A DNA stretch of 64,000 nt from an uncultured Gammaproteobacteria bacterium (GTDB lineage: Bacteria > Patescibacteriota > Patescibacteriia > UBA11705 > DATKZF01). The position numbers were made by a program, and so were the translations under genes. The stretch lies in contig CAYPKD010000005.1 in the NCBI GenBank assembly GCA_964411255.1, positions 5,547-69,546 on the forward strand, read 5' to 3'. The notes beneath the pieces were generated by a model. It saw only the letters and a program-made list of their open reading frames with translations. It did not search any database and was not told where the DNA came from. Positions 7,373 through 60,635 of this stretch are shown here, piece after piece. Numbering within the stretch: position 1 is the stretch's first letter; the number at the start of each line of letters is the position of its first letter.

Positions 7373-7373
7373 C

Positions 7374-7417
7374 GTCAAAAGGTAAAAACGAATTCGAATT
7401 CGTTTTTACCTTTTGAC
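7374..7417. repeat. perfect 22-bp-arm palindrome (gtcaaaaggtaaaaacgaattc|gaattcgtttttaccttttgac)
   Basis: Read directly from the sequence. It overlaps the last codons and the stop (7406-7408) of the minus-strand methyltransferase gene. Confidence 0.6.
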
Positions 7418-8554
7418 GGCTATTTTCCAAATTGTAATTCTTCGAACCAAATGTTGTCCTGGCCTTGAATAATCAAATTCATTGAGTAAATTATAGCCAA
7501 GCTGTTTTATATTTTCATCAATTGACGTATCGATTATTTGTTTTTTAGATTTTAATTTTGGAAAGATAAATACCACTATATGTTTAGATCCAAGCAATTT
7601 ACTAAATTTTTCAAAGGATTTTAAATATAAAAGCTGAAGTTCTTTTTTTATTTTATTTAAGTCTGCCTGATTTTCTTTACCAGTTAAGGGTTTGCCTAAA
7701 TATGGTTCAGTGACAATTGCTTGAGGTAAAAATTTTAAATCTTTTGCAGTTGCTTTGGTTATGTCTAGCGTTTTCATTTCAATATTTACAGTTAAATTAA
7801 AATTTTCAAGCAGCCAATCAATATTTTTTTGAGCTTTTAGAATAGTTGAAGCATTTATATCACTACCAAAGATGTTTTCATATCCTAATATTGCTGCTTG
7901 CTGCAAAATAGTGCCAAAACCGCAAAATGGATCCCAAATAGTTTTTGTTTTTTGTGGAATTAGATTAATCATCATTTGCGCCACTTTAGGCGGCAGCATA
8001 CCTATCTTGGGATCAAATTCTGGACGGCCATAGTCAAGCTTGTTCCAGAGCTCAAAGTCCTGAACGGCTAAGGTTTTACCAATTAAAAAAATTCCGCGTT
8101 GTTCAAAAATACAAAGCTCAATTCCCTGATCAATCAGCTTATTTTTTTTAACAACGACTGCGGTTAGGTTTTGCGTTTTCGGACTCACAAATCTACATGG
8201 CCGGCTTTGTTTAATAATTTTTTTTATTTCAATGCCCAGTTTGTTTATTTTAAGTTTTTGATTTGTATAGTCGCTTATTCCAAACTGGATCTTGTTTGTT
8301 TGTTTTAAATCAATCGTTTTGATGAGCTCGTTGGCATTGAGTCTCTGAATTTGGCCGATGATTTCACCGAATTTTATTTGACCGCCGAGTCTGTAAAAGA
8401 TTTTGTTATCTATTTTTTCTTTCGATTCAATAATAAAAAGCTCGTTTTGCTGCAAAATTTGCTTAAATTCAATTTTTGTTAAAAACAAAACGTTTTTTAT
8501 CTCAGCTAAAGATAATTGGGGTGTTTTTCCAAAAATAAAATAATATTTATGCAT
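7406..8554 (-). CDS. THUMP/Trm11-like RNA (guanine-N2 or adenine-N6) methyltransferase
   Basis: SAM-binding motif I WDPFCGFGTIL and DPPY-like motif TEPYLGKP. The likely start is the ATG at 8552-8554 (MHKYYFIFGK); the ORF-track N-terminal extension to 8704 is rejected. Confidence 0.65.
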   Translation of the reverse strand: MHKYYFIFGKTPQLSLAEIKNVLFLTKIEFKQILQQNELFIIESKEKIDNKIFYRLGGQIKFGEIIGQIQRLNANELIKTIDLKQTNKIQFGISDYTNQKLKINKLGIEIKKIIKQSRPCRFVSPKTQNLTAVVVKKNKLIDQGIELCIFEQRGIFLIGKTLAVQDFELWNKLDYGRPEFDPKIGMLPPKVAQMMINLIPQKTKTIWDPFCGFGTILQQAAILGYENIFGSDINASTILKAQKNIDWLLENFNLTVNIEMKTLDITKATAKDLKFLPQAIVTEPYLGKPLTGKENQADLNKIKKELQLLYLKSFEKFSKLLGSKHIVVFIFPKLKSKKQIIDTSIDENIKQLGYNLLNEFDYSRPGQHLVRRITIWKIAVKR

Positions 8555-11005: not shown

Positions 11006-11134
11006 TTAAGGTGGTAGGCCGGTAGGATGGTAGTTTAATTGAAGAAATATAAACTACTTGCTATTCTATTCTAACTTTTTTAATTTTCAATATTTTGATA
11101 TAATAAAATAGTCTCTAATAAATAAAATAAAAAT

Positions 11135-11519: not shown

Positions 11520-12509
11520 ATGACAGATAAAAATACAATTTATGATGTAATAATCATCGGTGCTGGCGCTGCAGGTTTGACAGCAGCCATTTATACTGGC
11601 CGAAGAGAATTGAAAACATTAATTTTGACAAAAGACATTGGCGGCCAGGCTGCGATGACTGATGAAATTGAAAATTGGCCTGGTGAAATTTCTATTTTAG
11701 GACCTGAACTAATGAATAAATTTAAAGCCCAAGCTGAAAAGTGGGGTGCAAAAATTGAATTTGCTGAAATAAAAGAGATTAAAAAAGAAAAAGATTATTT
11801 TGTACTACTTGCAGATGGAAAAGAATATAAAGCATTAACTATAATTTTAGGATTTGGACTTGAGCATAGGAAATTAGGAGTGAGCGGAGAGAAAGAATTT
11901 ACTGGAAAAGGAATATCATATTGCGCCACTTGTGATGGCCCATTATTTCGAGGGAAGACAATTGGTGTGGTTGGCGGAGGTAATTCAGCTTTGGATGCAG
12001 TTGAATATTTAGCAAAGCTGGCGGAAAAGGTTTATATGTTTATTAGAAAAGATACTTTTAGTCCAAATGCAGAGACAGTTCTTGTTGATACAATTCAGAA
12101 TTTGGAAAAACAAGGCAAAGTTGAAGTAATGTGGAACACAGAAGTAAAGGAAATAAAAGGAGAAAAATTAATGAATTCTGTGGAATTTGTTAATAATAAA
12201 ACGAATAAAACACAAGATTTAGAATTAAAGGGTTTATTTATTGAAATTGGCATGGTACCGCAGACAAAAGTGATTGAAGGCCTGGTTGATTTAGATGAAC
12301 GTGGACAAATAGTAATTGATCAGGGATGTAATACCAGCGTGCCTGGCATTTATGCTGCTGGTGATGTAACTATCAGTCCATATAAACAATTGGTCACTTC
12401 TGCTGGGGAAGGTGCAAAAGCAGCTTTATCAGCATATTCTCATATTCAGAAAACTCAGGGTAAAAAAGGCGGAGTTGGGAGTGATTTTACAAAAAAGAAA
12501 ATTATGTAA
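11520..12509 (+). CDS. trxB: thioredoxin-disulfide reductase
   Basis: FAD motif IIGAGAAGLTAAIY and redox-active CATCDG. Confidence 0.92.
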   Translation: MTDKNTIYDVIIIGAGAAGLTAAIYTGRRELKTLILTKDIGGQAAMTDEIENWPGEISILGPELMNKFKAQAEKWGAKIEFAEIKEIKKEKDYFVLLADGKEYKALTIILGFGLEHRKLGVSGEKEFTGKGISYCATCDGPLFRGKTIGVVGGGNSALDAVEYLAKLAEKVYMFIRKDTFSPNAETVLVDTIQNLEKQGKVEVMWNTEVKEIKGEKLMNSVEFVNNKTNKTQDLELKGLFIEIGMVPQTKVIEGLVDLDERGQIVIDQGCNTSVPGIYAAGDVTISPYKQLVTSAGEGAKAALSAYSHIQKTQGKKGGVGSDFTKKKIM

Positions 12510-12620
12510 AAACAGATCAACGGATAGCAACAGATACAACGGAAATCAATTAATATCCGTTTCATCTGTTGTAGATCTGCCAGTCCTGAGCTTGTCGAAG
12601 GGTTGATCCGTTTGAATAAT
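12510..12620 (+). repeat. MITE-like / leader repeat element, copy A
   Basis: About 110 bp with imperfect terminal inverted repeats aaacagatcaac...gttgatccgttt and internal CAAC(A/G)GATA direct repeats. It is homologous to 16540-16630 and 30090-30200 and ends at the gdh ATG. Confidence 0.6.
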
Positions 12621-15931: not shown

Positions 15932-16059
15932 ATTATGAGATTACCACGATGTGGTCACTTCGTGACAAGATCCATAATACGAGATAATACAGATTACAGA
16001 TAGTACAAGATTAGCGGATTCCAAATAGTAATAAGCAATCAGCAATTAACAATCATTCC

Positions 16060-16630: not shown

Positions 16631-19036
16631 ATGAAGAAATATAATCACCAAAAATTAGAAAAAAAGTGGCAAGAGTATTGGGAAGAAAAAGAAATATACA
16701 AAGCTTTGGATTTTGATCAAACAGATAAGCCTAAATATTACAGTTTAATAGAATTCCCTTATCCATCTGGGGAAGGTCTTCATGTTGGCCATCCGCGAAG
16801 CTACACCGCCTTAGATGTTATTGCCAGAAAGAAAAGGATGCAAGGGTATAATGTTTTATTCCCAATTGGCTGGGATGCTTTTGGTTTACCCACGGAAAAT
16901 TATGCAATAAAAACCGGTATTCATCCAAAATTAGCTACTGCTCAAAATGTTAAAAGATTTACAAAGCAATTAAAGAGCCTGGGATTGAGTTTTGACTGGT
17001 CAAGGGAAATAAATACTACTGATCCTGAATATTATAAATGGACGCAATGGATATTTTTAAAATTGTATGAAAATGGTTTAGCATATAAAAAGAAAATGCC
17101 AATTAATTGGTGTCCTTCATGCAAAATTGGTTTAGCCAATGAAGAAGTGGTCAGTGGAGTTTGTGAGCGCTGCGGTCATGACGCAGAAAAAAGAGATATG
17201 AAACAATGGCTTTTAAAGATAACTGCATATGCAGATCGTTTGATTGAGGATTTGGAAACCGTTGATTATTCTGAGAATATTAAAACAGCGCAAATAAATT
17301 GGATTGGCCGGAGCGAAGGAGCTGATGTTGATTTTGAAATAAAAGGAACAGATAAAAAACTTAGTGTTTTTACCACCAGACCTGATACTTTATTTGGCGC
17401 AACGTACATGGCAATTGCTCCTGAACATGAATGGGTTGAAGAAATCACCACAAAAGACAATAAAGAAGCTGTTTTTAATTATCAAAAGCAGGCCAGGCAA
17501 AAATCAGATTTAGAAAGAACTGATTTGGCAAAAGAAAAGACCGGAGTGTTTACTGGCGCGTATGCAATTAATCCGGTCAATGGCCAGGAAATTCCAATTT
17601 GGGTTGCTGATTATGTTTTGTCAACTTATGGCAGTGGAGCAATTATGGCGGTACCAGCGCATGATGAGCGTGATTATGAATTTGCCAAAAAATATGATTT
17701 GCCAATTATTGAAGTTATTAAAGGCGGAGACATCGCAAAAGAAGCTTACACCGAAGATGGTGAGTTAATAAATTCAGAAATGCTTAATGGTTTAAATGTT
17801 AGTGATGCCATAAGTAAAATAAATAAATGGCTGGAGGAAAAAGAATTTGGTAAAGCAACTATTAATTATAAGCTTCGCGACTGGATTTTTTCCCGGCAAC
17901 ATTATTGGGGTGAGCCAATACCAATTGTTTTTTGTAAAAAATGCGGTACAGTACCTGTCCCATATGAAGAATTGCCACTGGAGTTGCCAAAAGTTGAAAA
18001 TTATAAGCCAACTGAAACGGGTGAATCACCTTTAGCAAATATTAAAAAGTGGGTTAATACAAAATGTCCAAAATGTAAGGGATCTGCAAAGAGAGAAACA
18101 GACACAATGCCAAACTGGGCTGGCAGTTCATGGTATTTCTTGCGATATTGCGATCCAAAGAACAGTGAAGAATTTGCAAATTCTGAGAAACTAAAATATT
18201 GGTTTCCAATAGATTTATACAATGGCGGAATGGAACACACAACATTGCATTTATTGTATTCCAGATTTTGGCATAAATTTTTATTTGATATAGATTTAGT
18301 GCCAACTTCAGAGCCTTACATGCAGCGGAGATCTCATGGCTTGATTATCGGAGAGGATGGACAGAAAATGTCAAAGTCTAGAGGTAATGTTATTAATCCG
18401 GACGATATTGTTAAGGAGCACGGAGCAGATGTTTTGAGAACATATGAGATGTTTATCGGTCCATATGATCAGTCTATCGCATGGTCAACAAACGGTATAA
18501 ATGGAATTCGGAGGTTTATTGATAGGATTTATAATTTTAAGGGTTTTAAAAATAATGGAACTAAGGATTCTGAGGAAGTTGAGATATTATTGCAAAAGAC
18601 AATAAAAAAAGTAACAGATGATATAGATAAAATGCATTTTAATACAGCTATTAGCGCTTTAATGATTTTATTGAACAAATTTGAAGAAGAAAAGATTATT
18701 TCAAAAGATACTTGGAAAATATTTTTAATAATGTTTTCTGTGTTCGCGCCACATATAACGGAAGAGCTTTGGCAGGCTCTGGGTGAAAAGACCAGCATAT
18801 GCCTAAAACCATGGCCCAAGTATGATGAGGGTAAAATTAAAGAAGAAAAAATTAAATTAGTAGTACAGGTTGATGGTAAGGTACGGGCAAATATCGAGGT
18901 AGAAAGCGGAATAATTGAAGACGAAGCAAAACAAATAGCATTGAAAGATGAAAAATTAAAAAAATCTATTGGGGATAAGGAAATTAAAAAAATTGTGTTT
19001 GTGAAGGATAAGCTGATTAATTTTGTGATAAAGTAA
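16631..19036 (+). CDS. leuS: leucyl-tRNA synthetase
   Basis: HIGH (HVGHPRSY) and KMSKS motifs and the editing domain. Start taken as ATG 16631 (MKKYNHQKLEKKWQEYW). Confidence 0.95.
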   Translation: MKKYNHQKLEKKWQEYWEEKEIYKALDFDQTDKPKYYSLIEFPYPSGEGLHVGHPRSYTALDVIARKKRMQGYNVLFPIGWDAFGLPTENYAIKTGIHPKLATAQNVKRFTKQLKSLGLSFDWSREINTTDPEYYKWTQWIFLKLYENGLAYKKKMPINWCPSCKIGLANEEVVSGVCERCGHDAEKRDMKQWLLKITAYADRLIEDLETVDYSENIKTAQINWIGRSEGADVDFEIKGTDKKLSVFTTRPDTLFGATYMAIAPEHEWVEEITTKDNKEAVFNYQKQARQKSDLERTDLAKEKTGVFTGAYAINPVNGQEIPIWVADYVLSTYGSGAIMAVPAHDERDYEFAKKYDLPIIEVIKGGDIAKEAYTEDGELINSEMLNGLNVSDAISKINKWLEEKEFGKATINYKLRDWIFSRQHYWGEPIPIVFCKKCGTVPVPYEELPLELPKVENYKPTETGESPLANIKKWVNTKCPKCKGSAKRETDTMPNWAGSSWYFLRYCDPKNSEEFANSEKLKYWFPIDLYNGGMEHTTLHLLYSRFWHKFLFDIDLVPTSEPYMQRRSHGLIIGEDGQKMSKSRGNVINPDDIVKEHGADVLRTYEMFIGPYDQSIAWSTNGINGIRRFIDRIYNFKGFKNNGTKDSEEVEILLQKTIKKVTDDIDKMHFNTAISALMILLNKFEEEKIISKDTWKIFLIMFSVFAPHITEELWQALGEKTSICLKPWPKYDEGKIKEEKIKLVVQVDGKVRANIEVESGIIEDEAKQIALKDEKLKKSIGDKEIKKIVFVKDKLINFVIK

Positions 19037-19037
19037 A

Positions 19038-19166
19038 ACCAGCATTTCTGCTGTACGCCTGCCAGTTTCGTGGTCAGCGGCAGAGATGCCGCTTGATTCA
19101 GTGCAGGCGCTTACAAGCACCATTTCTGGTGCTACCCAAAATGACAGCAGAAATGCTGGTTTTTTG
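19038..19166 (+). terminator. complex terminator-like structured element after leuS
   Basis: Perfect 17-bp outer stem accagcatttctgctgt / acagcagaaatgctggt followed by a T-run. It encloses about 86 nt of GC-rich sequence with at least two inner hairpins. Confidence 0.55.
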
Positions 19167-36595: not shown

Positions 36596-38023
36596 TTAAA
36601 TAGCATTTTTACCTTTAATCACTGCCCATGGAGTTTTTAATAATATCCAAAAATCAAGTTTTAGCGACCAGTTTTCAATATAGAAAATATCCATTTTTGC
36701 TTCTTCATCAAATGGCAAATCGCTTCGACCACTGATTTGAGCAATACCAGTTATTCCAGGTTTTATATCTAAGGTTCGTAATTGCTCTGGCGTATATCTT
36801 TCAACTTCTCTTGGCTGGTGAGGCCGAGGGCCAACTATGCTCATATTTCCGATAAAGACATTGAAAAATTGAGGCAGCTCATCAATGCTGATTTTTCGGA
36901 TAAATCTGCCAACAGCAGTTACGCGGGGATCTTTTTTTATTTTATATAAAGCACCTCTGGACGCCCCTTGTTCTTTTATTAATTTTTTTTCAAGTTCCAA
37001 TGCTTGTTTACTTGATGGTGCATCTGGCCCTGTACTCATATCCCAATACATTGATCTGAATTTGTATACATTGAATTTTTTTCCATTTTGGCCAACTCTT
37101 TCATTCTTATATATAATTGGCCCTTTTGAATTAATTTTTATGGCAATAGCTGTAAATAGCATTATTGGTGAAGATAAGATTATAAAAATAATTGAACTAA
37201 ATAAATCAGAAAATCTTTTAATAATTTTTTTCCAGCCGTCCAGTGGTGTCTTTTTTATTTCAATTACTGGCAGACCAGCAATCATGTGCGTTTCAATGTT
37301 GGTAGCCCTGGCTTCAAAAGGACCGGCAACATATTTAAAAATAATATGATTATATTTGGCAAAATTGATCAATGAAATTGTATCTTTTCTTGAGATATTT
37401 GGATCAGTTTGAATGATTTCATCAATAAATGTTTTTTTATGAAGAGCTTGAATTTTCATTAATGTGTCTTGATTAAACTGTTCAAAATGTTTGAGAATTT
37501 TTAATCCTAATGAAGGTTGTTTTAAGATTGCATTTTTTACAGCATTAGTATTTGAATTTTTTCCAATAATTATAATTTTATGAGTTCCCCAGCCAGTTTT
37601 ATATAAACTATTTTGAACGATTCTAATTATCATTCTGCCAACAATTATGAAAAGGATGCTGAAAAGCCAGGCAAACAAAATAATAAATCTTGATTCAAAA
37701 AGTTCTCTGACAAAGAACATATATAGAATAATTGCAGTCATGCCAGTAGAGCAGGCTAATATAATCCTGGCCATTTCATCAGTGACTTTTGTTTTTTTAA
37801 ATTTATAAAGAGATGACCAAAAAAAGAAAATCAGCCATATTGCAGCCATTACAATTAGTACACCTAAATATTTATTAAATTCCAGATCAAATACAACCGG
37901 CCTTATTTCAGTAACTGATTCAATAAAACGCAGAGAATAAGCGGTAATACCAGCCAATATTAAAAGAAAGTAGTCAGTGACCAGTTTTATAAGTACAAAT
38001 ATTAATTCTGATTTTTTTATCAT
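36596..38023 (-). CDS. polyprenyl-phosphate sugar phosphotransferase (WbaP/bacterial sugar transferase family)
   Basis: N-terminal TM helices; C-terminal sugar-transferase block IVGPRPHQPREVERYTPEQLRTLDIKPGITG. Confidence 0.85.
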   Translation of the reverse strand: MIKKSELIFVLIKLVTDYFLLILAGITAYSLRFIESVTEIRPVVFDLEFNKYLGVLIVMAAIWLIFFFWSSLYKFKKTKVTDEMARIILACSTGMTAIILYMFFVRELFESRFIILFAWLFSILFIIVGRMIIRIVQNSLYKTGWGTHKIIIIGKNSNTNAVKNAILKQPSLGLKILKHFEQFNQDTLMKIQALHKKTFIDEIIQTDPNISRKDTISLINFAKYNHIIFKYVAGPFEARATNIETHMIAGLPVIEIKKTPLDGWKKIIKRFSDLFSSIIFIILSSPIMLFTAIAIKINSKGPIIYKNERVGQNGKKFNVYKFRSMYWDMSTGPDAPSSKQALELEKKLIKEQGASRGALYKIKKDPRVTAVGRFIRKISIDELPQFFNVFIGNMSIVGPRPHQPREVERYTPEQLRTLDIKPGITGIAQISGRSDLPFDEEAKMDIFYIENWSLKLDFWILLKTPWAVIKGKNAI

Positions 38024-38150
38024 AAATTTGTTAGGCTGGTAGATCGGTAGGTTAGTAGGTTGGTAGATTTAAAAAAAATTGGAAGAAGGACGCTACTAAT
38101 ATTATTGCAATTTTTTGTAAAAATTTCAATAATAACATCCACCTTCCAAT

Positions 38151-38760
38151 TGATCCAAACAGGTCTATAAGCCGAATTCTGTCCCACCAGAGGCGGGGAT
38201 GATCATCTATCTAGTCCCGAGATTACTCTCGGGATCAAGCGAGCTACCAAACTTGCTCTTGCACCAGATAAGGTTTACCACCACCTAATGTTACCATTAG
38301 GCAAGAGAAGTATAAATTAAATAGTCACGTGAACCATTTAACTTTTTTCCTTCTCACTTTTCACCTTTCACCACTGCTACGCAGTGGAATTTCTAAATCC
38401 TAATTTTTTAAACTCTGAACAATTTTCAAATTTTCGAAAGGTTTTAAACATTAGAACATTTGAATTTCGAATTTGTTTAGAATTTCGTATTTCGAATTTA
38501 GCGCTTCCATTGCGCAACAATGGCTAGTATAGTCTCTGTGGCACTGGCTGTCGTCTAGGTTTATTAATTATCCTAGAATCGCCTGGGAGTTACCCAGTAT
38601 CATACCGCAGATTACGCTGATTAGCCGATTACGCAGATTGCAGGACTTTTTTTTATCAGCGTAATCAGCGTAATCTACGGTCAGGTGTTCGGACTTTCCT
38701 CCGGCCTACGCTTTTCACTTTGTTCAAAGCTTCGGCTGGCGATCATCCAACCTATTTGGA
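38151..38760 (-). ncRNA. rnpB: RNase P RNA (bacterial type A-like) with large insertions
   Basis: On the minus strand: GGAGGAAAGUCCGAACACC (P4 5' strand), CUGGGUAACUCCCAGG (P8-like), CCAGUGCCACAGAGAC, GGUGAAAGGUGAAAAGUGAGAAGG (P13/14-like), CUAGAUAGAUGAUCAUCC...GACAGAAUUCGGCUUAUAGACC (P4 3' strand, P2). The 5' and 3' ends pair as P1. Confidence 0.8.
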
Positions 38761-38886: not shown

Positions 38887-39660
38887 ATGAGACGAGTAAG
38901 GCAATTGACATATTTTGTTGTAATTTCGTTTATTCTCATGTATGTCAATGGATGTTCTTTATATTCTGAAAATGATCGTTCTTTTTTAGATGATCAGAAT
39001 AGACAGTCTGCTCGAAGAACAGTTCGTTCAGATGATTCTATAGATCAAAATCCTAATCAGCTAAAGCGGGAAAAGATTATTCAAGTAGCTCAGGCAAAAC
39101 TTTCTTTGGAAGAATTTGCTCAGGCTGAACCTTTGAAAAGATATTGTGATATTACTGGCACCAGCTTTGAAGTAGAAAAGATGCCAGTTACTATTTCTCA
39201 TGCTGGAAGAGAAGTATATGTGGAAACTGAATTAAAGGATTCAACTCTTTTTAAAGAAAATGCAACAAAAGTGCTGGGCTGGTGGAAGCGAAATTACCGG
39301 GTAAGAAAAGTAGAAGATAAGGGTCTGCGCTTGGTCACCATGCTGAAAATTCCAAGAGCAGCCAAATATGATGATGTTGCCAAGGCAATATTTGAATTCT
39401 ATCAAAAGAATTTTCAAAATATTGTTATTTCAGTTATTTGTCGGGAAATGAATAACTGGGCAGTTGATGAATATCCAAATGATTTTTCTGTGGTGATTGA
39501 AAAAAAACAGGAAAATCAGACCCAAAAAGAAGACAAGGCTGCTGCGAAAAAGGCAGCAAGGGCTGCTGCGAGAAGGGCGGCAAGGGCTGCTGCGAGAAAG
39601 GCAGCAAAGGCTGATGCAAAAGAACCAGCCAAACCTCCTGCAAAAAAAGCAGATGAATAA
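38887..39660 (+). CDS. lipoprotein with C-terminal Ala/Lys/Arg repeat tail
   Basis: RBS AAGGAGGA, lipobox VNGCS, C-terminal KAAAKKAARAAARRAARAAARKAAKADAK. Confidence 0.5.
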   Translation: MRRVRQLTYFVVISFILMYVNGCSLYSENDRSFLDDQNRQSARRTVRSDDSIDQNPNQLKREKIIQVAQAKLSLEEFAQAEPLKRYCDITGTSFEVEKMPVTISHAGREVYVETELKDSTLFKENATKVLGWWKRNYRVRKVEDKGLRLVTMLKIPRAAKYDDVAKAIFEFYQKNFQNIVISVICREMNNWAVDEYPNDFSVVIEKKQENQTQKEDKAAAKKAARAAARRAARAAARKAAKADAKEPAKPPAKKADE

Positions 39661-41220: not shown

Positions 41221-42198
41221 TTATTTTACTAATCCGATTTGTTCTTTTACCCGTTCCAATGTTTGTGAAGCAACTTTTTGTGCGTTTTCTGCTCCTTTTT
41301 CTAAAATTTTTAAAACCTTTTTATCATCAAGTTCATTTATTTTATCTTGAATAGGATTTAGAAATTCAATAATTTTTTCAGCTAAGTCTTTTTTAAAATT
41401 ACCATAACCTTTGCCTGCATATTTTTTTTCAATTGATTTGATTTCTTCGCCAGTTACTAAGTGGTAAATGGTTAACAGATTGGAAACCGCAGGTTTATCA
41501 TCAGCATATTTTATTTCAGATCCAGAATCAGTGACTGCTTTCATTATTTTTTTGCGAATTAAATCTGGCTGATCTGTTATTGCAATATAATTATATTCTG
41601 AAGCGGCAGATTTGCTCATCTTTTGTGTTGGGTCATCGAGCCCCATCAAGCGGGCACCATGTTCTGGCACAAAAGTTTTCGGTACTTTTAGAGCATCCCC
41701 ATACAAATTATTAAACTTCTTGGCAACTGTTCTGGTTAATTCAACATGCTGCATCTGATCTTCACCTACTGGGACAACATCAGTGTCATAAAGCAAAATA
41801 TCTGCAGCCATTAGTACTGGATAGGTGAAAAGACCGGCATTGATATTTTCCTTATGTTTTTGTGCCTTGTCTTTAAATTGAGTCATCCGCTCTAATTCAG
41901 CAATCGGAGTAATAGTGCTTAGGATCCAGGACAGCTCAGTATGTTCAGATAAATGTGATTGAATAAATAACGTGCATTTTTTTGGATCAAGTCCAGCAGC
42001 AATAAATATTTTTGCCAGATTCAAAGTATTTTGTCTTAATATTTCAGGTTGCTGATAAACTGTTAAGGCATGGAGATCAACTATACAAAAATAAGAATCA
42101 TATTCATTTATGAAGTTAAGCCAGTTTTTTATTGCGCCAAAGTAATTTCCGAGATGAATTATACCGCTTGGCTGGATTCCACTTAAAATTCTTTTCAT
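41221..42198 (-). CDS. trpS: tryptophanyl-tRNA synthetase
   Basis: HIGH-type motif PSGIIHLGNY and KMSKS. Confidence 0.9.
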   Translation of the reverse strand: MKRILSGIQPSGIIHLGNYFGAIKNWLNFINEYDSYFCIVDLHALTVYQQPEILRQNTLNLAKIFIAAGLDPKKCTLFIQSHLSEHTELSWILSTITPIAELERMTQFKDKAQKHKENINAGLFTYPVLMAADILLYDTDVVPVGEDQMQHVELTRTVAKKFNNLYGDALKVPKTFVPEHGARLMGLDDPTQKMSKSAASEYNYIAITDQPDLIRKKIMKAVTDSGSEIKYADDKPAVSNLLTIYHLVTGEEIKSIEKKYAGKGYGNFKKDLAEKIIEFLNPIQDKINELDDKKVLKILEKGAENAQKVASQTLERVKEQIGLVK

Positions 42199-42207
42199 AT
42201 ATTTTTA

Positions 42208-42244
42208 GATTGGTAGATCGGTAGATTTGTAGATTGGTAGTTAG
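42208..42244. repeat. GGTAGAT-unit repeat block (left inverted repeat of 4HB cassette)
   Basis: gattggtagatcggtagatttgtagattggtagttag; its reverse complement recurs at 42674-42710. Confidence 0.55.
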
Positions 42245-42246
42245 AA

Positions 42247-42647
42247 TTATTTATTATTTAATTCTTTAGTTTTTGAATTTGTCATTTTATTCAACATTCG
42301 CATGACTTCATTTAATAAATTATCAACTTTTAAAAAATTTAATTTTTTTCCAAATGGTAGACGATTGGCAATTTCTATTTGAGTTTCTAATTCTGCCCCG
42401 GAAGCATATGCTACTATTAAAAAGTGACGATATTCTTTTATTGTTAGTCGTTTTTTTCCTTCAGCGATATTCGAGGGGATAGATATAGCTGTTTTTCGTG
42501 TATGTTGAATTAATCCAAATGATTCAATTTTCGGATATTATTCTGTTAATTCATAGACCGCGACAACTAAATCCATTGCTTTTTGCCAAACAATTAATTT
42601 CCGGTAATCCCCAGGTTGATTAATTTCATTTTAAAATAATTTCCCAT
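42247..42647 (-). pseudogene. four-helix-bundle protein (Avd / 23S rRNA IVS protein, TIGR02436-like), disrupted
   Basis: The minus strand encodes MGNYFKMKLI..VWQKAMDLVVAVYELTE*YPKIESFGLIQHTRKTAISIPSNIAEGKKRLTIKEYRHFLIVAYASGAELETQIEIANRL.... A 26-nt duplication-type insertion (direct repeat attaatttc at 42594/42620) shifts the frame. There is an in-frame TAA at 42538-42540. Not in the ORF track. Confidence 0.6.
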
Positions 42648-42673
42648 GTACTTTTATCCTATCATTTAAATCT

Positions 42674-42710
42674 CTACTGATCTACCAATCTACCGCCCTA
42701 CCGAACTAAC
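42674..42710. repeat. inverted copy of GGTAGAT-unit repeat block (right IR)
   Basis: ctactgatctaccaatctaccgccctaccgaactaac is the reverse complement of the block at 42208-42244. Confidence 0.55.
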
Positions 42711-42713
42711 TTA

Positions 42714-44444
42714 TTAAATTTCAATAACTACAGGCAAGACCATTGGTCTTCTTTTAGTTTTCTTAAATAAGAATGAGCCTACTTCATTTCGTAGCCTATT
42801 TTTTATGTTATTTGGATCTGACGGGCATTTTGGATTTTTATCTTTGATAATTTTTCGGACAAGGCTGCGGGCGTTTTCAACTAATTCCCGGCTTTCTTTC
42901 ATATATATAAATCCTCTGGAAATAATGTCCGGACTTCCGATTAATTCTCCGGTTTTTCGGCTAATAGTGGCAATGACCACAAACATGCCATCTTCTGACA
43001 TCTGCCTTCTGTCTCTTAACACAATATTACTGATATCGCCGACACCCAGTCCATCAACCATTACGTATTCGGTTGGTACTCGTTTTTTTGTCAAGGTACC
43101 TCTTGCTGTTTTGCCGCGCTTTGTAAATTCAATAATTTGTCCATTATCAGCAATAAAAATATTAGATGCAGGAATGCCCATACTTTCTGCTACCTCTGCA
43201 TTTCCGCGTAACATAAAATGATTGGCTTCAATCGGGATGTAGTATTGTGGTTTTAGCAATCTGATAAGCATTTTTACATCTTCTTGTTTGGCATGTCCGC
43301 CAGCATGAACGTCCATTAGCTTATTATGAAATAATTTTGCTCCCTGGCGGGTTAGCGTGTCTTTAAGGCTTTGAATTGTTCGTTCATTACCTGGAATTAC
43401 TGAAGACGAAAATATAACAGTGTCGCCTTTTGCAATACTTAAAAATCGATGATCATTATTTGCAATTCTCATTAGAACAGCATTATTTTCGCCTTGAGCA
43501 CCTGTTCCAATAACCACTTGTTTGTTTGCAGGCAGTCGCAAAAACGGTCCTTGTTCGACAATTGTACCAGGCTTAATTTTTAAATAACCTAATTTATGAG
43601 CAATTTCAACATTAGAAACCATACTCCGGCCATCTAAATAAACTTTTTTGCCATATCTTTCAGATATGCTGATTAATTGCTGCACTCGATTTAGTGACGA
43701 GGCAAATGTCCCGACAATAATTCTACCCGGAGCCACTTTGAAAATTTTATCAATATCTTCGCCAACTGTACTTTCAGATATTTGATAACCCGGCTGCATG
43801 GCGTTTGTACTGTCAGACATTAAAGCCAATACTCCGCTTGCTCCTATTTGTGCAATTCTGTTTAAATCAGCAGGTTTATCATTGACTGGATTAAAGTCGA
43901 TTTTAAAGTCACCTGTATGAACAATATTTCCGACAGGGGAGTTAATAACGACTCCAAAACTGTCCGGAATGTTATGATTAACCCTGAAAAAGTTGACTCG
44001 GAGTTTCCCAAGCTGGATATTGTCTTTTTCCGGATCAATAATCTGAATGTTTAGTTTTTGAGTTTTGAATTCCTCATGCCGTTTTTGGATCATTCCTGCC
44101 GTTAGTTTTGCAGTGTAAATTGGTGGGAAGCTAAGCTTTGGCATTAAGTATGAAATTGCACCAATATGGTCAAGGTGACCATGAGTGATAATTACACCTT
44201 TAATTTTTTTGAGCTTGTCTTCCAGGTAAGTGATGTCTGGGATAATAAAATCAATACCAGGCATGTGTTCTTCTGGAAATTGAAGTCCCATATCGATTAA
44301 GACAATGTCATTGCCATATTCGATCAGGGTCATGTTCCGGCCGACTTCTTCCAGTCCGCCTAAAACAATGATTTTTAGTTTGTTAGAAGATTCTCTGCTA
44401 GTCCATTTTCGTCTAACAGGTCTTTTTGTTTGTTTTCGAATCAT
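42714..44444 (-). CDS. rnj: ribonuclease J
   Basis: Metallo-beta-lactamase HGHLDH motif, beta-CASP and C-terminal domains. Confidence 0.85.
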   Translation of the reverse strand: MIRKQTKRPVRRKWTSRESSNKLKIIVLGGLEEVGRNMTLIEYGNDIVLIDMGLQFPEEHMPGIDFIIPDITYLEDKLKKIKGVIITHGHLDHIGAISYLMPKLSFPPIYTAKLTAGMIQKRHEEFKTQKLNIQIIDPEKDNIQLGKLRVNFFRVNHNIPDSFGVVINSPVGNIVHTGDFKIDFNPVNDKPADLNRIAQIGASGVLALMSDSTNAMQPGYQISESTVGEDIDKIFKVAPGRIIVGTFASSLNRVQQLISISERYGKKVYLDGRSMVSNVEIAHKLGYLKIKPGTIVEQGPFLRLPANKQVVIGTGAQGENNAVLMRIANNDHRFLSIAKGDTVIFSSSVIPGNERTIQSLKDTLTRQGAKLFHNKLMDVHAGGHAKQEDVKMLIRLLKPQYYIPIEANHFMLRGNAEVAESMGIPASNIFIADNGQIIEFTKRGKTARGTLTKKRVPTEYVMVDGLGVGDISNIVLRDRRQMSEDGMFVVIATISRKTGELIGSPDIISRGFIYMKESRELVENARSLVRKIIKDKNPKCPSDPNNIKNRLRNEVGSFLFKKTKRRPMVLPVVIEI

Positions 44445-48313: not shown

Positions 48314-48436
48314 TTTAAATTTGAGAATAGTTATTTAGAAATCAGTATTAGAAATAAGATAATAAAAATAGTTTTTAAATACTAATTTCAAATTTCCATT
48401 TTCCATTACCAATTTTGATTTTCTATAAACTAATTT

Positions 48437-49539
48437 CTATGAGAAAAAACATTGAGGGATCAGAAGCAATAGCTGAGGTGGTTAAATTAATACAACCAGA
48501 AGTGGTAGCCACTTTTCCAATTACACCTCAGACTCATATAATAGAACATCTGGCTAAATATAAAGCAGATGGTGAGGTTGGTTTTGAATATATAAAAACT
48601 GAAAGTGAGTTTGCAGCAGCCTCAGTTGTTTTGGGTGCCAGCGCGATGGGGGTACGGGTATACACCGCTTCCAGCTCACAAGGATTGCTTTTAATGGGCG
48701 AGGTTTTATATGACATTGCTGGCATGAGATTGCCCGTGGTTATAACTGCAGCTAATAGGGCGATTTCCGCGCCATTAAATATTTGGAATGACCATCAGGA
48801 TGTAATGCCTTTTCGTGATGCTGGCTGGATAATGCTTTTTGCTGAGACTAATCAGGAGGCGATGGATCTGCATCTTTTGGCTTTCAAGTTGGCTGAAAAA
48901 TTATCGCTCCCAGCAATGGTTTGCATGGATGGTTTTGTCTTAACCCACACTTATGAGCCGGTTGACATTCCAAAGTTAAGCGAAGTTAAAAAGTTTTTAC
49001 CTAAATACAGGCCAAAGAAAAATACATATTTAGATGTGATTAATCCGGTTAGCCTGGGTTGTTTTGCCACCCCAGCTGATTATCAGGAAATAAGACTGGA
49101 ATTACATGAGGATTTATTAAAATCAAAAAATCTATTCATTCAGGAAGCAAAGAAATTTAAAAAGATTTTTAAACGGAATTTAAATATTATTGATTATTAC
49201 GGCCCAAAAAATGCAAAAACTGTAATTGTCGCGATGGGAGCAGCTTTAGGCACCATTAAAGAAGCTGCAGATCAGTTAAATGAAAAAGGATCAAAGGTGG
49301 GAGTATTAAAAATATCAATGCTGCGGCCTTTTCCAAAAATGGAAATAAAACATTTATTAAAAGATAAAAAAAACGTGATTGTTCTGGATCGGGCAATATC
49401 ACTGGGTTCTGGTGGTATATTATATAATGAGGTTAGAAATGCTTTATGCAATACCAATGCCAAGGTTAGCGGAGCAGTAAACGGCTTGGGTGGAAGGGAT
49501 ATTACAATTGATTTTATTAAAAAACTTATTGTAGCGTGA
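48437..49539 (+). CDS. porA: POR alpha subunit
   Basis: EGSEAIAEVVKLIQPEVVATFPITPQT N-terminus; start at ATG 48437. Confidence 0.85.
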
Positions 49540-49552
49540 TAATTTTGAGAAT

Positions 49553-49631
49553 TGGAGGTTACGGAATTACGGAAGGTTACTGATATTACGGATATCCGTA
49601 GTATCCGTAATAATCAGTAAATCCGTAATCC
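49553..49631. promoter_or_regulatory. palindromic array of TTACGGA / TCCGTAA repeats (operator-like)
   Basis: ggttacggaattacggaaggttactgatattacggatatccgtagtatccgtaataatcagtaaatccgtaatcc: three direct TTACGGA on the left and three TCCGTAA on the right, around a perfect 14-bp palindrome tacggatatccgta. Confidence 0.55.
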
Positions 49632-49640
49632 CTAATAAAT

Positions 49641-52118
49641 ATGAAAAAAATAATATTACTTACAATTCTTCTGGCATTAATTTGCACGTCTTTTTTAGTT
49701 GCTGCCAAGGTTAGTGCGTTTGAGCCTTTGGAAGAATTAATTCCAAGAATGAAAATCCCGATCCCGCAGCTTGAACCATTTCAAAAGCCTACTTATGTGG
49801 AAGAAGGAGGCAAGGGCTATATTTTCATTCCATGGATAGCCCAATATGTAAGTGCAATGTATAAATATGCTTTGGCTATTGGATCAATCATTGCTGTGAT
49901 TGCAGTTATGGTAGGAGGAATTTTATATTTAACCTCTGGCGGTGCGCCTGGCAGAATAGATCAGGGTAAAAATATTATTATTGGTGCTATTACCGGACTT
50001 TTAATTATAATTTTTTCTTATATCTTTTTAAATACAATTAATCCTGAACTGGTGAATCTTAAGGCTATTAGAATTCAAGCTGTAAAACAAGAAGCATTAG
50101 TGGTTGGAAATAATTGTAAGGATTTGGGAGCTGGATTTATAGTCAGAACTCCAAGCGGAGAAAAAGAAGGAACAACAGGTAATGCCCAGTATTTTGCATG
50201 CGGCAGTTCATATCCAGTAAGGTCAGGGGCAGCAGATGTGATTGTTCCCGAAGGTCAGAATTGCGATGGGGCGTATTGCCAAAAGGGTGCTTGCGAGACT
50301 GTTGATGGTAAACCACAGTGTGTGAATGCTTTGTTTACAGGAGAAATTACAGGAACGATGTTGTCCGGAGGAAGATATATTGATGAAGAATTTGAGCTTT
50401 GGGGCATGCCGGGAAATGGTCTTCTCGCAGCATTTCCAGTTCCATCTAAAGGACGATATGTTATTCCTTTAACAGCTGAATTAGAAAACAAACTAAATCT
50501 TGTAGACAAAGTGTATTTTCATCTACAGATAAATACCACAGGTGCTTATCCTTATTGGGCCTATAAAATTGGAAAGGAAGGAGTTGTTGATGTGGATTTG
50601 ATAAAAGAAACGGTAAAAAGTTATTTTAAAACTACAATAGATAGTGAATTTTATGCAGTAAAAAGTTATAAGGATCCAGAAAAAGCAATATGGGGATTCC
50701 CATACTCTCTAGATCAGATGTCCCCACTCAATCCTAGTTATGGTAATACCCCTTGTGATCCATGTTTTGTGATGCCTAGGAACGCTGAATGGCGATTTGA
50801 ACAGAGATTGCCTTGGTGTCAATTTTGGGAACCGACTGATCTTTTAGTAGCAGCAAAAAGTGGATCTGGAACAGTTGTAAATTTTAATATTGATGATTTT
50901 CCAGAATATCCTCAGTGGCCTCCACCGGTTCTAGTAAAAGAACTTCTATTAGATAATATTTCTGGATTACCTACGCCTGAATTTTTAAAGGGTGTTAAAT
51001 ACGAAGATATAGATTGGAATAATTTGGCTACAATCAATCCAGATTTATATCCTTATATGACTGATCCTGCTGAATTTTGTGTGGCTTCGAGTCAGTTAAC
51101 ATCTGCCTCTCCATTTCCTGGGACTCCATGTACTAGTCCGTTTGAGACAGCATTTGTTGCAGCTGATGATGCGAATGCGCCAGATGATTTAAAGGGGAAA
51201 ACATTATATTGTCGGCCTGCTGGTTATCAAGTCGGTTCAGGCACAGCAGTAGCAAAGTTTGAATGGACATTGGAAGATGCTAGGAAAGGAGATACGTGTG
51301 ATAATTTAAGTGTTGCTCAGAGTTTTCCAGGACAATTTTCAGCTGGACAAACAGCAAAAAACGATGGACAGCCATTTGTTAATTGTGAATCTGGCGTTAG
51401 TTGCCAATGGGTTAGCGGTGATGTAGGAGAATGTATAAATGGTTTAACATATTGTTTTGGGTTTTGTGAAGATGATGAAGCAGTATTGTCTATGGGAATT
51501 GGAGATCCATGCAGAGATGGCACCTGCCTTCCATATAAAGGATCAATAGAATTAAAATGCGTTTTAAATGGAAATGCCAGGGAATGTTTATTAGGCACAT
51601 GGGGATCATTTTGCAATACTGATAACGACTGTAAAGACGGTTTTGAATGTATTAAGCATGACACTACAACTACTGATGAAGTTCAATTTTGTGCAAAAAA
51701 GAATGCAGGAAGATGGCAGGCATGTGGAGATAAAATTAGCGGTAGTGGTACGAATTGTTCTTCTGGATTGGATTGTGAGCAAGTAGAATACGGAGAAGAA
51801 GGTGATAGTGACGCACAGTGTGATACAGGCCATTGGTCTGGAGCAGATACTAATAATTTGAAATTTTGTCTTGAAAGTACTTATGATGATAATAATCATG
51901 GGATCTGCTCCTGTTCAAATAATAGTAATTGTGCCAATACTTATGGTTGGGATTCTGGTGCAAATTATTGTAATTTAGCAGGTTATGAATATTGTTCTCA
52001 AAAAGTTGAAGGCGCATGGTGTAAAGTAGAGGGAAAAACAACACCAGACAATTATTTTTGCCATGGTGTAGGAGGTGAGTATGGAGTTTTACATCAAAAG
52101 ATTTCAACTAGTCAATAA
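49641..52118 (+). CDS. large Cys-rich secreted/membrane-anchored protein inserted in the por operon
   Basis: Signal peptide, then two hydrophobic helices separated by a short Gly-rich loop, then a roughly 680-aa domain with dozens of Cys. No catalytic motifs recognised. Confidence 0.55.
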   Translation: MKKIILLTILLALICTSFLVAAKVSAFEPLEELIPRMKIPIPQLEPFQKPTYVEEGGKGYIFIPWIAQYVSAMYKYALAIGSIIAVIAVMVGGILYLTSGGAPGRIDQGKNIIIGAITGLLIIIFSYIFLNTINPELVNLKAIRIQAVKQEALVVGNNCKDLGAGFIVRTPSGEKEGTTGNAQYFACGSSYPVRSGAADVIVPEGQNCDGAYCQKGACETVDGKPQCVNALFTGEITGTMLSGGRYIDEEFELWGMPGNGLLAAFPVPSKGRYVIPLTAELENKLNLVDKVYFHLQINTTGAYPYWAYKIGKEGVVDVDLIKETVKSYFKTTIDSEFYAVKSYKDPEKAIWGFPYSLDQMSPLNPSYGNTPCDPCFVMPRNAEWRFEQRLPWCQFWEPTDLLVAAKSGSGTVVNFNIDDFPEYPQWPPPVLVKELLLDNISGLPTPEFLKGVKYEDIDWNNLATINPDLYPYMTDPAEFCVASSQLTSASPFPGTPCTSPFETAFVAADDANAPDDLKGKTLYCRPAGYQVGSGTAVAKFEWTLEDARKGDTCDNLSVAQSFPGQFSAGQTAKNDGQPFVNCESGVSCQWVSGDVGECINGLTYCFGFCEDDEAVLSMGIGDPCRDGTCLPYKGSIELKCVLNGNARECLLGTWGSFCNTDNDCKDGFECIKHDTTTTDEVQFCAKKNAGRWQACGDKISGSGTNCSSGLDCEQVEYGEEGDSDAQCDTGHWSGADTNNLKFCLESTYDDNNHGICSCSNNSNCANTYGWDSGANYCNLAGYEYCSQKVEGAWCKVEGKTTPDNYFCHGVGGEYGVLHQKISTSQ

Positions 52119-58923: not shown

Positions 58924-59036
58924 ATATATAGAAAGCTTAATGGGCTTGATAAGGCTTAAGAAGGTAAAGAGGGCAATTTCATTGCTTCATTATTTAACAT
59001 ATAATAACATCATAACCTCGTAACTTCATAACTTTT

Positions 59037-60635
59037 TTATCTCTTTTTACCTTTTTTCTTCTTTTTCCTAGATTCAATAATCTGTTTTTCTTGATCCAAA
59101 ATTTCTTGCTTATGATTTTGAAGATATTTCATTGCCTGTTTTTTTGAATTTATTTCTCCATTTAGCCAAGCATCCTGAACTGCTGTTAAAGCTAAGCCAA
59201 AATAAATTCCCCCACGTCTTTCAAAAAATATTTCATTAATATCATCACTTGAAAGAATGGTCTTTGGTAATTTTTGCTCTTGCCTTGCTTCAATTCTCTT
59301 CCTTACTTTTTCAATTTTGGTCATCAGCTCATCATAACGCTTAGTATTTGGCTGGCCATCAGATTTAATTGAGCTTAATGAATCTAAATAGGTAAGCATT
59401 AATAATTCATTGCCATGTTTTCCGAAAAAAGCATTTTCAATATCTTTAAAAGAAAATTGTCCTGGATCTTCCAGCAGATTTCTTATTAAAAAAGTGATTT
59501 CCTTAATTTGCTTATTGGAAAATTTTAAACGACGAGTGATTTTTTCAGACAGTTGAGCGCTTTGCTCGTTAGGATGTTTAAATTTGATTTTTTCATCTCC
59601 ATCTTCAATTACAATTTCCTGTGATTTTGGTTTCCCAATTTGCGAAAGCATAATAGCGACAGTAAATTCTGGAGATATTTTGGCATTTGGGAATTTTGAT
59701 TTGAATTCTGGAGAATTGATTTTTTCCAGCATTAATTTAGTATGCTGCCAGACATCTCCTTCCTGATGAGATTCAGCTGGTTGAGTGCAATTTTTGAGTT
59801 TATTTAATTCAGGAATAATCTGCTGCCAGAGACTTGCTTTATCATATAAATCAAAAGCGCGTTCTGAATTTTCTTTAAGGCTTTTTAATAATTCTTTTCT
59901 AATGGTGTCTTCTGGTACTTTTCTTTCTTTTTTACCTTTTTCACCCACCACAGTATCATTGATGTGCTGGGCATTTTCAATAATTGCTTTCCAGGTATTT
60001 TTTTCAATTTGAAAATCAAACCGGCAGGCAAAGCGGATAGCGCGCAGCATCCTGGAATAATCTTCTTTGAATCTGTCTTCAGGTTTGCCAACAGCACGGA
60101 TAAGCTTGTTTTCTAAATCTTTTTTTCCATCATAAGGATCAACCAATTTTCCTTCTCTGACATCATAGGCCATGGCATTTATAGTCAAATCCCTTCGGCC
60201 CAAATCTTCTTCGACCGGCATGTTTGGATCAGACTGAACTTCAAAATCTTTTTTGCCACCGCCGCCAGTTGAAAATTCTGTGCGTGGAAAAGCAATATCA
60301 ATTGGTTCATCTAAACTTTTGTCTTCTGGCATGAATTTATAAACGCCAAAATGCTTTCCAACCAGATCTAAGCTGCCCTTTTCTTCAGTTAAAGCCTTTT
60401 CAAGGTCCTGGCCAGATATTTTTCTAAATATAAAATCAAAATCTTTTGATTTAAGCTTGTCTAAAAGGGTATCGCGCACAATTCCACCGACCATGTACAT
60501 TTCCAAATTTTCAAGATTAGGGTTGGTAATAAAATCATCTAAAAATCGCTTGACAGCTGGTTCAGTTAATATTCTTTTTCGCAGCTTGTCTTCTGGAGCC
60601 TCTTCCTTTAGTAATATTTTTTCAAAAAATTTCAT
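59037..60635 (-). CDS. cca: CCA tRNA nucleotidyltransferase / poly(A) polymerase family with HD domain
   Basis: GGIVRD...DFD nucleotidyltransferase motif plus a C-terminal HD-like region. Confidence 0.8.
   Translation of the reverse strand: MKFFEKILLKEEAPEDKLRKRILTEPAVKRFLDDFITNPNLENLEMYMVGGIVRDTLLDKLKSKDFDFIFRKISGQDLEKALTEEKGSLDLVGKHFGVYKFMPEDKSLDEPIDIAFPRTEFSTGGGGKKDFEVQSDPNMPVEEDLGRRDLTINAMAYDVREGKLVDPYDGKKDLENKLIRAVGKPEDRFKEDYSRMLRAIRFACRFDFQIEKNTWKAIIENAQHINDTVVGEKGKKERKVPEDTIRKELLKSLKENSERAFDLYDKASLWQQIIPELNKLKNCTQPAESHQEGDVWQHTKLMLEKINSPEFKSKFPNAKISPEFTVAIMLSQIGKPKSQEIVIEDGDEKIKFKHPNEQSAQLSEKITRRLKFSNKQIKEITFLIRNLLEDPGQFSFKDIENAFFGKHGNELLMLTYLDSLSSIKSDGQPNTKRYDELMTKIEKVRKRIEARQEQKLPKTILSSDDINEIFFERRGGIYFGLALTAVQDAWLNGEINSKKQAMKYLQNHKQEILDQEKQIIESRKKKKKGKKR

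Follow-up and report, generated by a model that had tools for sequence, protein, structure and literature searches.

What kind of element occupies the 515-nucleotide (nt) spacer between rnj and trpS, two minus-strand genes of an uncultured bacterium? The spacer lies in a stretch of 64,000 nt from contig CAYPKD010000005.1 (assembly GCA_964411255.1; hereafter the window), which has a G+C content of 35% and whose nearest named protein relatives come from metagenome-assembled genomes of Patescibacteria (candidate phyla radiation, CPR). A first-pass annotation, made from the sequence alone, proposed either a relic of a mobile cassette resembling the intervening sequences (IVSs) of ribosomal RNA (rRNA) genes, or a remnant of a retroelement accessory gene. 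The spacer is occupied over its entire length by a 505-bp unit (window 42205-42709) with a dead gene of the four-helix-bundle (4HB) family PF05635 / TIGR02436 between two inverted arrays of short tandem repeats. On balance, this locus is probably a recently inactivated IVS-type 4HB cassette outside rRNA, built on a class layout of array, open reading frame (ORF) and reverse-complement array. Taken singly, the locus is a variant of a known IVS-type element and a modest result. Two wider patterns are undescribed as far as we could find: the bracketing, across phyla and in operon spacers, of this gene family as a whole by inverted arrays with about five YAG-phased heptads each, and the coincidence of the arm units with hitherto unexplained heptamer repeats.

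The gene inside the unit is a pseudogene of the PF05635 / TIGR02436 family; it carries a deletion and a TAA codon and has no translatable intact ORF. After repair of the TAA to lysine, its translation matches PF05635 over profile positions 1-106 of 106 (E=2.6e-31, 108.4 bits, cut-off 33.8) and also TIGR02436 (E=5e-28, 97.5 bits, cut-off 24). Both scores are far above the cut-offs, in line with the earlier proposal of a minus-strand 4HB gene. The family motifs scored were G/RxxxSxPxNIAEG and ELETQ; the repaired translation contains SIPSNIAEG and ELETQ, both of which are invariant in the alignment of relatives (A1). Alignment with two intact relatives (loci L006 and L007) revealed exactly two lesions, a 1-nt deletion near the start of the gene and the in-frame TAA at 42539-42541, which the first-pass annotation had noticed. 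The same annotation attributed inactivation in part to a 26-nt insertion with a 9-nt direct repeat. The repeat is present, with two copies of GAAATTAAT 26 nt apart (42593/42619), but the supposed insertion is not, since the bases between the copies encode INQPGDYRK, which is conserved in both intact relatives and is thus ancestral coding sequence. The gene is therefore dead as claimed, with the 1-nt deletion as its second lesion in place of the insertion. Five independent assemblies (ENA, JGI and Logan) agree at every position of the 515-nt spacer (100% identity), so that the lesions are real and not assembly errors, as far as assemblies can tell. Between the pseudogene and its intact relatives dN/dS is 0.09-0.12 at a dS of 0.7-1.0; purifying selection therefore acted strongly on the protein over most of its history, and the loss of function is recent.

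The inverted arms at the two ends of the unit (42205-42240 and 42674-42709) are 36 nt long each and 81% complementary, with 433 nt between them, and rank second in length among the inverted repeats of the full window. Each arm consists of four tandem GGTAGATN units. Tandem Repeats Finder assigned a period of 8 to the arrays (4.4 copies, 85% matches, unit TAGATTGG), so that the unit is GGTAGAT plus one base and no pure heptamer. Hence, of the 37-bp inverted repeats of GGTAGAT heptamers described previously, the inverted arrangement stands, and the length and the unit are revised. The unit series of the upstream arm can also be given as TAGTTCGG TAGGGCGG TAGATTGG TAGATCAG. The double unit GGTAGATNGGTAGAT, with no more than 2 mismatches allowed, is matched 9 times across the window, where 0.18 matches were expected. 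A gap of 4 nt separates the stop codon of rnj from the upstream arm, and one of 6 nt the downstream arm from the trpS ATG; the unit therefore fills the spacer completely. The four 8-nt units of the 5′ array end 26 nt ahead of the pseudogene ATG. When folded as RNA, the arms are paired in both the minimum-free-energy and the centroid structures (z = -3.4). Scans of the cassette for promoters and terminators gave nothing better than shuffled sequence, an Rfam scan of the window matched RNase P RNA as sole hit and no rRNA, and a second full copy of the cassette was not found in the window. Features of the locus, together with related arrays elsewhere in the window, are collected in Table 1.

Table 1. 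Coordinates of the cassette, its lesions and neighbours, and of arrays and hairpins lying elsewhere in the window
Feature	Position	Strand	Remarks
4HB (PF05635 / TIGR02436) pseudogene	42247..42647	-	ATG 42645-42647; native stop TAA 42247-42249; SIPSNIAEG kept
Lesion 1, 1-nt deletion in A/T run after codon 5	~42628..42632	-	ATG thrown out of frame; from alignment with L006 and L007
Lesion 2, in-frame TAA (LTE*YPK)	42539..42541	-	Gly or Gln in intact relatives; from translation and alignment
Upstream (5′) arm, gene sense	42674..42709	-	four tandem 8-nt units: TTAGTTCGG TAGGGCGG TAGATTGG TAGATCAG TAG
Downstream (3′) arm, gene sense	42205..42240	-	CTACCAAT CTACAAAT CTACCGAT CTACCAAT CTAA
rnj (RNase J), upstream neighbour	42714..44444	-	same strand as cassette; Lactamase_B, RNase_J_b_CASP, RNase_J_C
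Class Ib aminoacyl-tRNA synthetase (trpS of the first-pass annotation), downstream neighbour	41221..42198	-	PF00579
Solo GGTAG-unit array	11011..11035	+	GGTAGGCC GGTAGGAT GGTAG; ~5 nt after infB stop (infB 9023-11005); no partner arm, no 4HB gene
Solo GGTAG-unit array, CTACC-type on minus strand	38038..38068	-	ends ~13 nt before ATG of sugar-transferase gene 36596-38023; 3′-arm position
ORF-less arms-only palindrome, inverted tandem 8-9-mers (TTACGGA type)	49551..49636		fills spacer of ORFs 48415-49539 and 49641-52118
Arms-only hairpin, CAGAT/ACGGAT-type units	12519..12571		directly after stop codon of ORF 11520-12509

As judged from related sequences, the arms belong to the 4HB gene, for the same arm type accompanies it at the same site in another organism and at a different locus altogether. 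The closest intact homologue (P0001, 84% identical) occupies the rnj-trpS site of a related organism (L006; TrpS 80% identical), where GGTAGATT-type (GGTAGAT-type) arrays flank it, inverted in the same way. Next comes P0002 (80% identical), whose gene sits between unrelated neighbours (L007) and also carries arms of GTAGAT type. Two further relatives have no cassette: rnj and trpS are separated by only ~38 nt in L088 (TrpS 83% and RNase J 85% identical) and by ~42 nt in L090 (TrpS 81% identical). These short spacers are mostly made of CT-type tandem heptamers of other sequence (CTTCAAG CTTCCAA in L088, CTTACTT CTTGCTT CTTACTT in L090), and L101, a more distant relative, has three different solo arrays in its rnj-trpS spacer. 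Presence of the cassette at this site is therefore polymorphic, and the site has hosted arrays of differing unit types. Such a distribution fits both insertion and loss, at most as candidate mechanisms. With the family right, the gene dead, the arms travelling with it and two relatives lacking the cassette, the proposal of a relic IVS-like cassette in the first-pass annotation has held up well.

Two of the rnj-trpS spacers without a 4HB gene, both from more distant relatives, are conspicuous in themselves. That of L101 (~2300-2500) is packed with tandem 7-9-mer arrays of AAGTCTGTA, AGTTCTA and TAGATTC types, and that of L095 (~2300-2500) contains ACTTCCT-type arrays.

The free-standing, repeat-bounded state of the gene had been regarded as unusual, a premise that does not survive a survey of the family. 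We sampled 80 loci of relatives in genomes that represent species of Patescibacteria, Bacteroidota, Acidobacteriota, Proteobacteria, Firmicutes, Planctomycetota, Verrucomicrobiota and further groups, to which L006 and L007 were added to give 82. As a control, 830 positions of the same geometry were scored in the same loci, and the 99th percentile of their flank inverted-repeat score was taken as the threshold. The best flank inverted-repeat score at 4HB genes has a median of 35 (82 loci), against a control 99th percentile of 25, and 83% of the 82 loci exceed this threshold. In a crude conserved-motif scan none of the 80 genome loci was embedded in rRNA; all 80 lie outside it. With no rRNA-embedded locus fetched, the comparison with true IVSs therefore rests on the published account (PMC4990558). 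Arms are also present in 23 of 34 loci on viral contigs.

The arms have a recognisable grammar, which recurs with different letters. Their arrays have a period of 7 nt in 50 loci and of 8 nt in 15, with five units per array as both mode and median. The unit itself varies by locus (e.g. TAGGGAC, AGTTCAC, TTAGTGG or GAGTATT). AG occurs in 61 of 68 unit consensus sequences (chance ~36-40%, by our own estimate), mostly preceded by a pyrimidine, which gives YAGNNNN; the inward-reading strand of the arms has a G:C ratio of 3:1. In 46 of 68 loci, the genes on both sides run in the direction of the 4HB gene. In the typical case a few nt lie between the preceding stop codon and the upstream arm, and 0-30 nt between the downstream arm and the start codon that follows. 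The class layout is accordingly defined as about five 7-8-nt units (mostly YAGNNNN), a 4HB ORF of about 120 codons and then the reverse-complement array. Extra arrays of the local cassette's own unit were found in 15 of 51 loci, where 1.35 were expected from permuted units. In L060 and L039 (Planctomycetota, Pyrinomonadaceae), arms-only hairpins (L060 4666-4727, L039 529-703) or solo arrays with the unit of the local cassette lie in neighbouring spacers, the hairpins ~1.3-2.4 kb from the 4HB cassette, and in L060 hairpin and cassette fall within one run of co-directional genes. Members of the family on plasmids are concentrated in heterocystous cyanobacteria, the classical hosts of STRR sequences (short repetitive units in tandem); a Calothrix copy has weak arms.

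Individual loci of the survey add some detail. At L205, a single example, the upstream neighbour is divergent and a promoter-like box, TTGATATATAAT, stands upstream of the 5′ arm, so that the arm would be transcribed. At L213 (1960-2000), where the 5′ arm is TAGGAG x5, AGGAG in its last unit resembles a Shine-Dalgarno sequence and lies 5 nt ahead of the 4HB ATG; the MIP-channel gene upstream takes its TAG stop from an earlier unit of the same arm. Two viral contigs (L171 1-3474, L179 397-3480) contain a 4HB-like match within ORFs of more than 1000 codons and without flanking arrays; either a fused domain or an ORF called too long could account for this.

The known elements with which the cassette invites comparison are the ORF-bearing IVSs of 23S rRNA genes, as in Leptospira and Coxiella burnetii. 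Shared features are the PF05635 protein, a sense ORF that lies within the host transcript and is prone to decay, tandem short units just before the ATG (8 nt x4 here) and inverted-repeat ends that pair into an enclosing stem. In the C. burnetii IVS, 3-4 tandem GACAGAT heptamers stand ahead of the ATG of S23p, the element's inverted repeats form a stem that is cut by RNase III, and the ORF decays among strains (PMC4990558). The present cassette differs in its 8-nt unit and in its position between the protein genes rnj and trpS, not in 23S helix 25 or 45; moreover, a cut here would split an mRNA, not fragment an rRNA, and excision by RNase III with no religation has been demonstrated for rRNA IVSs only. 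ORFs of PF05635 have also been reported in CPR 16S and 23S insertions, and wedged in cas operons, e.g. between cmr3 and cmr2, which agrees with the tight operon-spacer position seen here. The Xanthomonas homologue Xcc0516 is reported to be a homopentameric ring (PMC4990558), and its structure (PDB 2GSC, 5 chains) is the only solved relative by sequence, with E=5.5e-22 to the intact orthologue.

A working model can be sketched from these comparisons. The cassette would be transcribed together with its neighbours, and pairing between its two arrays is predicted to yield a ~36-bp stem enclosing the ORF. By analogy with the Coxiella 23S IVS, RNase III may cut this stem in the mRNA. The host transcript would thereby be split harmlessly at the cassette: the upstream gene would still end at its own stop codon, and the leader of the downstream gene would consist of the CT-rich 3′ array. 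Most likely the 4HB pentamer binds the arrays, whose five units would match its five subunits. It would serve the maintenance or spread of the element rather than a housekeeping need, and the element presumably is, or was, mobile. In the present copy the ORF was inactivated recently via the 1-nt deletion and the nonsense codon, and its arms have persisted.

For the putative binding of arrays by a ring there are precedents in other folds. HutP reads UAG-N4-UAG-N4-UAG and TRAP reads 11 x (G/U)AG, and both are ring-shaped RNA-binding proteins. The 4HB system may be analogous, with an oligomeric ring and evenly spaced YAG, a 7-nt period as for HutP and a mode of 5 units that equals the 5 subunits. 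The folds are unrelated, however, and in contrast to the HutP and TRAP sites the spacer bases of the 4HB units are repeated as well and a complementary array is present.

The arm units also lead to a literature in which the gene does not figure. Heptamer simple repeats are over-represented in bacteria, and several families have been published without an associated gene, including GGGAATC in Xanthomonas, GGGGAYT in Nostoc and TAACTGA in Beggiatoaceae, cyanobacteria and Bacteroidetes, the last mostly just upstream of start codons. In Xanthomonas campestris (L168 2424-2872, GCA_035012225.1) an Xcc0516-type 4HB gene lies between accB and accC. Its upstream arm reads GGGAATC GGGAGTG GAGAATC GGGAATC (GGGAATC x4), and its downstream arm, which reaches the accC ATG, reads CATTCCC CATTCTC GACTCCC TATTCCC (NATTCCC x4). 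There are ~186 arrays and 70-75 inverted pairs of GGGAATC in Xanthomonas (PMC4692102); the unit is the 'G-quadruplex' repeat of Rehm et al. (2015), a paper that makes no link to the 4HB gene. One viral contig (L173) has CAGTTGC/CAACTG-type arms around its 4HB gene and a separate (N)AACTGA array, akin to TAACTGA, ~600 nt downstream; another (L191) has GGGGATT-type arms. Like the published heptanucleotide repeats (GGGAATC, GGGGAYT, STRR, TAACTGA), the arms are tandem 7-nt units in spacers, often directly before start codons; unlike the 4HB cassettes, most published arrays are solo or ORF-less. The papers on heptamer repeats make no mention of 4HB proteins (0 occurrences), and among open-access papers and bioRxiv preprints we found none that links 4HB/IVP genes to flanking heptamer arrays.

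Arrays and hairpins without a gene occur in the window as well (Table 1). The palindrome at 49551-49636 is the longest inverted repeat of the window, and the spacers filled by it and by the hairpin at 12519-12571 lie between co-directional genes. The first-pass annotation considered that its cassette would fall if the flanking repeats were ordinary genome-wide repeats unrelated to the gene. Genome-wide they are, as the solo GGTAG arrays at ~11011 and ~38038 indicate; unrelated they are not, being tied to the 4HB family across phyla. The arms-only hairpins and the solo arrays of this genome resemble cassettes in a more advanced state of the same decay, or else non-autonomous relatives. A far more general proposal can be made only tentatively, and we regard it as possible but rather doubtful: that 4HB cassettes, arms-only hairpins and solo arrays form one cross-phylum IVS-type class. 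This class would settle in the spacers of operons and in genes for structural RNAs (23S, 16S and RNase P RNA), would be neutralised at the RNA level, would be the source of the heptanucleotide repeats (Xanthomonas GGGAATC, Nostoc GGGGAYT, cyanobacterial STRR, Beggiatoaceae TAACTGA) or have them as cognate sites, and would encode a pentamer that reads about five YAG-phased heptads.

Several observations weigh against an IVS-type element that acts through RNA and moves. The arms carry no RNA-specific signal, with 67 A·C against 59 G·U mismatches. In a mirror test, identity was 86% in register and 72% when shifted by one unit, approximately as for plain homogeneous arrays, and there was no evidence of mirrored unit variants; the arms are two arrays of one unit. 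Given homogeneous arrays and no wobble signal, roles at the DNA level therefore fit equally well. As for mobility, no target-site duplication is evident as a direct repeat beyond the arms in L006, L007, L168 or the window (judged by eye, the array edges being fuzzy), no recombinase or reverse transcriptase (RT) is associated with the cassette, and no recent transposition was seen: P0005 and P0066, although present on numerous contigs, have one genomic context each. Furthermore, ~10% of the units lack AG, the Xanthomonas GGGAATC among them, and several unit families coexist in the window, where a single 4HB gene, and a dead one, is visible in 64 kb. The authors of the Coxiella study doubt that S23p is even translated (PMC4990558). 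Finally, Nostoc sp. PCC 7120 carries an identical 4HB protein (WP_010994075.1) on its plasmids gamma and alpha (L221 and L222, respectively), adjoining transposase genes (of the ISL3 family on pCC7120gamma). The two copies share a segment of ~870 bp and have kept the 3′ array alone (CTTCTGC/CCTCTGC), near the insertion sequence; the pair suggests duplication by way of an insertion sequence, and is an exception to the arm rule.

The main rival to a cassette is a host regulon, in which the 4HB pentamer acts as a nucleic-acid-binding regulator that belongs to the host or was domesticated by it, the arrays scattered over intergenic spacers are its sites (AG-type after stops, CT-type before starts), its own gene is autoregulated through the flanking arrays, and the window records the loss of one regulator copy. 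This would explain well why arrays far outnumber 4HB genes, as in Xanthomonas, with its ~186 arrays (PMC4692102) and a cassette of the same unit, and why arrays of the cassette's unit recur near cassettes. The solo arrays of the window and of the sites without a cassette, placed directly before starts or after stops, are likewise in its favour, as are the strong purifying selection on the protein and the lack of a wobble signal and of any sign of recent transposition. A regulator of this kind sits poorly, however, with the patchy presence of the gene among relatives whose proteins are ~80% identical, with the existence of pseudogenes, the present copy included, with the occurrence of the family inside rRNA genes, cas operons and viral contigs, and with many unit families in one genome where few 4HB genes are in view. 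We therefore consider the regulon unlikely, and the cassette remains the preferred reading.

Far less credible are the two other explanations. The retroelement alternative of the first-pass annotation would make the gene a decayed accessory gene (avd) of a diversity-generating retroelement (DGR) from which the RT, the template repeat and the variable repeat have disappeared. Proteins of the Avd and PF05635 types are four-helix bundles related to each other; the DGR protein bAvd, with its related Pfam family PF22296, is pentameric and basic and works with nucleic acid. The pseudogene does match the Avd models, but weakly and below their cut-offs (PF22296, E=0.0015, 19.4 bits vs 40; NF033474, E=5.6e-5, 23.4 bits vs 80), in contrast to PF05635 and TIGR02436, which are far above theirs. 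The retron-like RT gene said to lie ~20 kb away is not borne out, as no RT Pfam family was found in the 30 window ORFs scanned, which included every ORF of at least 250 aa; nor does an RT adjoin L006 or L007, and the intact members P0001 and P0139 match no PADLOC defence model. A template repeat or variable repeat is not apparent at the locus either, although no search aimed at such a pair was made. A DGR origin is thus very improbable. Equally little can be said for coincidence, whereby an unrelated gene in decay lies by chance between ordinary intergenic repeats born of slippage, or the lesions arose in assembly. Tandem arrays of 7-9 nt and of several kinds are indeed common in the spacers of this genome, and heptamer repeats abound in bacteria. 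Nevertheless, control positions almost never reach the scores observed at 4HB genes (99th percentile 25 vs median 35), the arms accompany the gene to a different locus (L007) and across phyla, and five independent assemblies are identical. On these grounds of assembly identity, control scores and cross-phylum association, this explanation was rejected.

The preferred cassette also has points in common with other small mobile or repetitive elements. MITEs (miniature transposable elements with inverted repeats), repetitive extragenic palindromes and bacterial interspersed mosaic elements (REP/BIME) and integron cassettes are likewise small intergenic units bounded by inverted repeats, in which ORF-less derivatives outnumber gene-bearing copies, and integron attC sites likewise conserve architecture with variable sequence. 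The 4HB cassettes differ from all of these in having tandem 7-8-nt arrays as arms, not unique terminal repeats, and no transposase or integrase. In the data at hand, neither near-identical multi-copy families nor, by eye, a target-site duplication were seen.

The origin and function of rRNA IVSs and of their S23p ORF have remained unexplained for ~30 years, and the over-representation of heptanucleotides in Xanthomonas, cyanobacteria and Beggiatoaceae is equally so. If a gene with inverted arrays is the common unit, the two puzzles would merge into one testable question, concerning the binding of five heptads by a pentamer and the action of RNase III on a stem in mRNA. The 4HB genes in accBC or cas operons would then be insertions, not functional partners of their neighbours, and arrays and hairpins could be annotated as operon punctuation. 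The general pattern is directly testable in Xanthomonas.

Short tandem units are also found in a structural RNA gene of the window. Its RNase P RNA (38152-38758, minus strand; RF00010, 139.6 bits) is 607 nt long, against 367 positions in the model, and the expansions are tandem short units: inverted 9-mers at 38604-38681 (CGCAGATTA / ATCAGCGTA; 20 nt, 95% complementary) and ATTTCGA x6.6 at 38458-38499. This RNA recalls the STRR heptamers that Vioque reportedly described in 1997 inside cyanobacterial RNase P RNA. Further solo arrays lie in spacers at 15974-16055 and 59004-59034 (ATAATACAG x3.9, AATCAGC x3.7 and ATAACTTC x3.9); the ATAACTTC array directly follows the stop codon of a minus-strand gene resembling poly(A) polymerase or CCA-adding enzyme (59037-60635). 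Other repeats of the window are a perfect 23-bp palindrome at 7373-7418, a perfect 20-nt inverted repeat at 19035-19054 / 19144-19163 with 89 nt between its arms, and a 24-nt tandem repeat (x5.4) at 39524-39653, within ORF 38887-39660.

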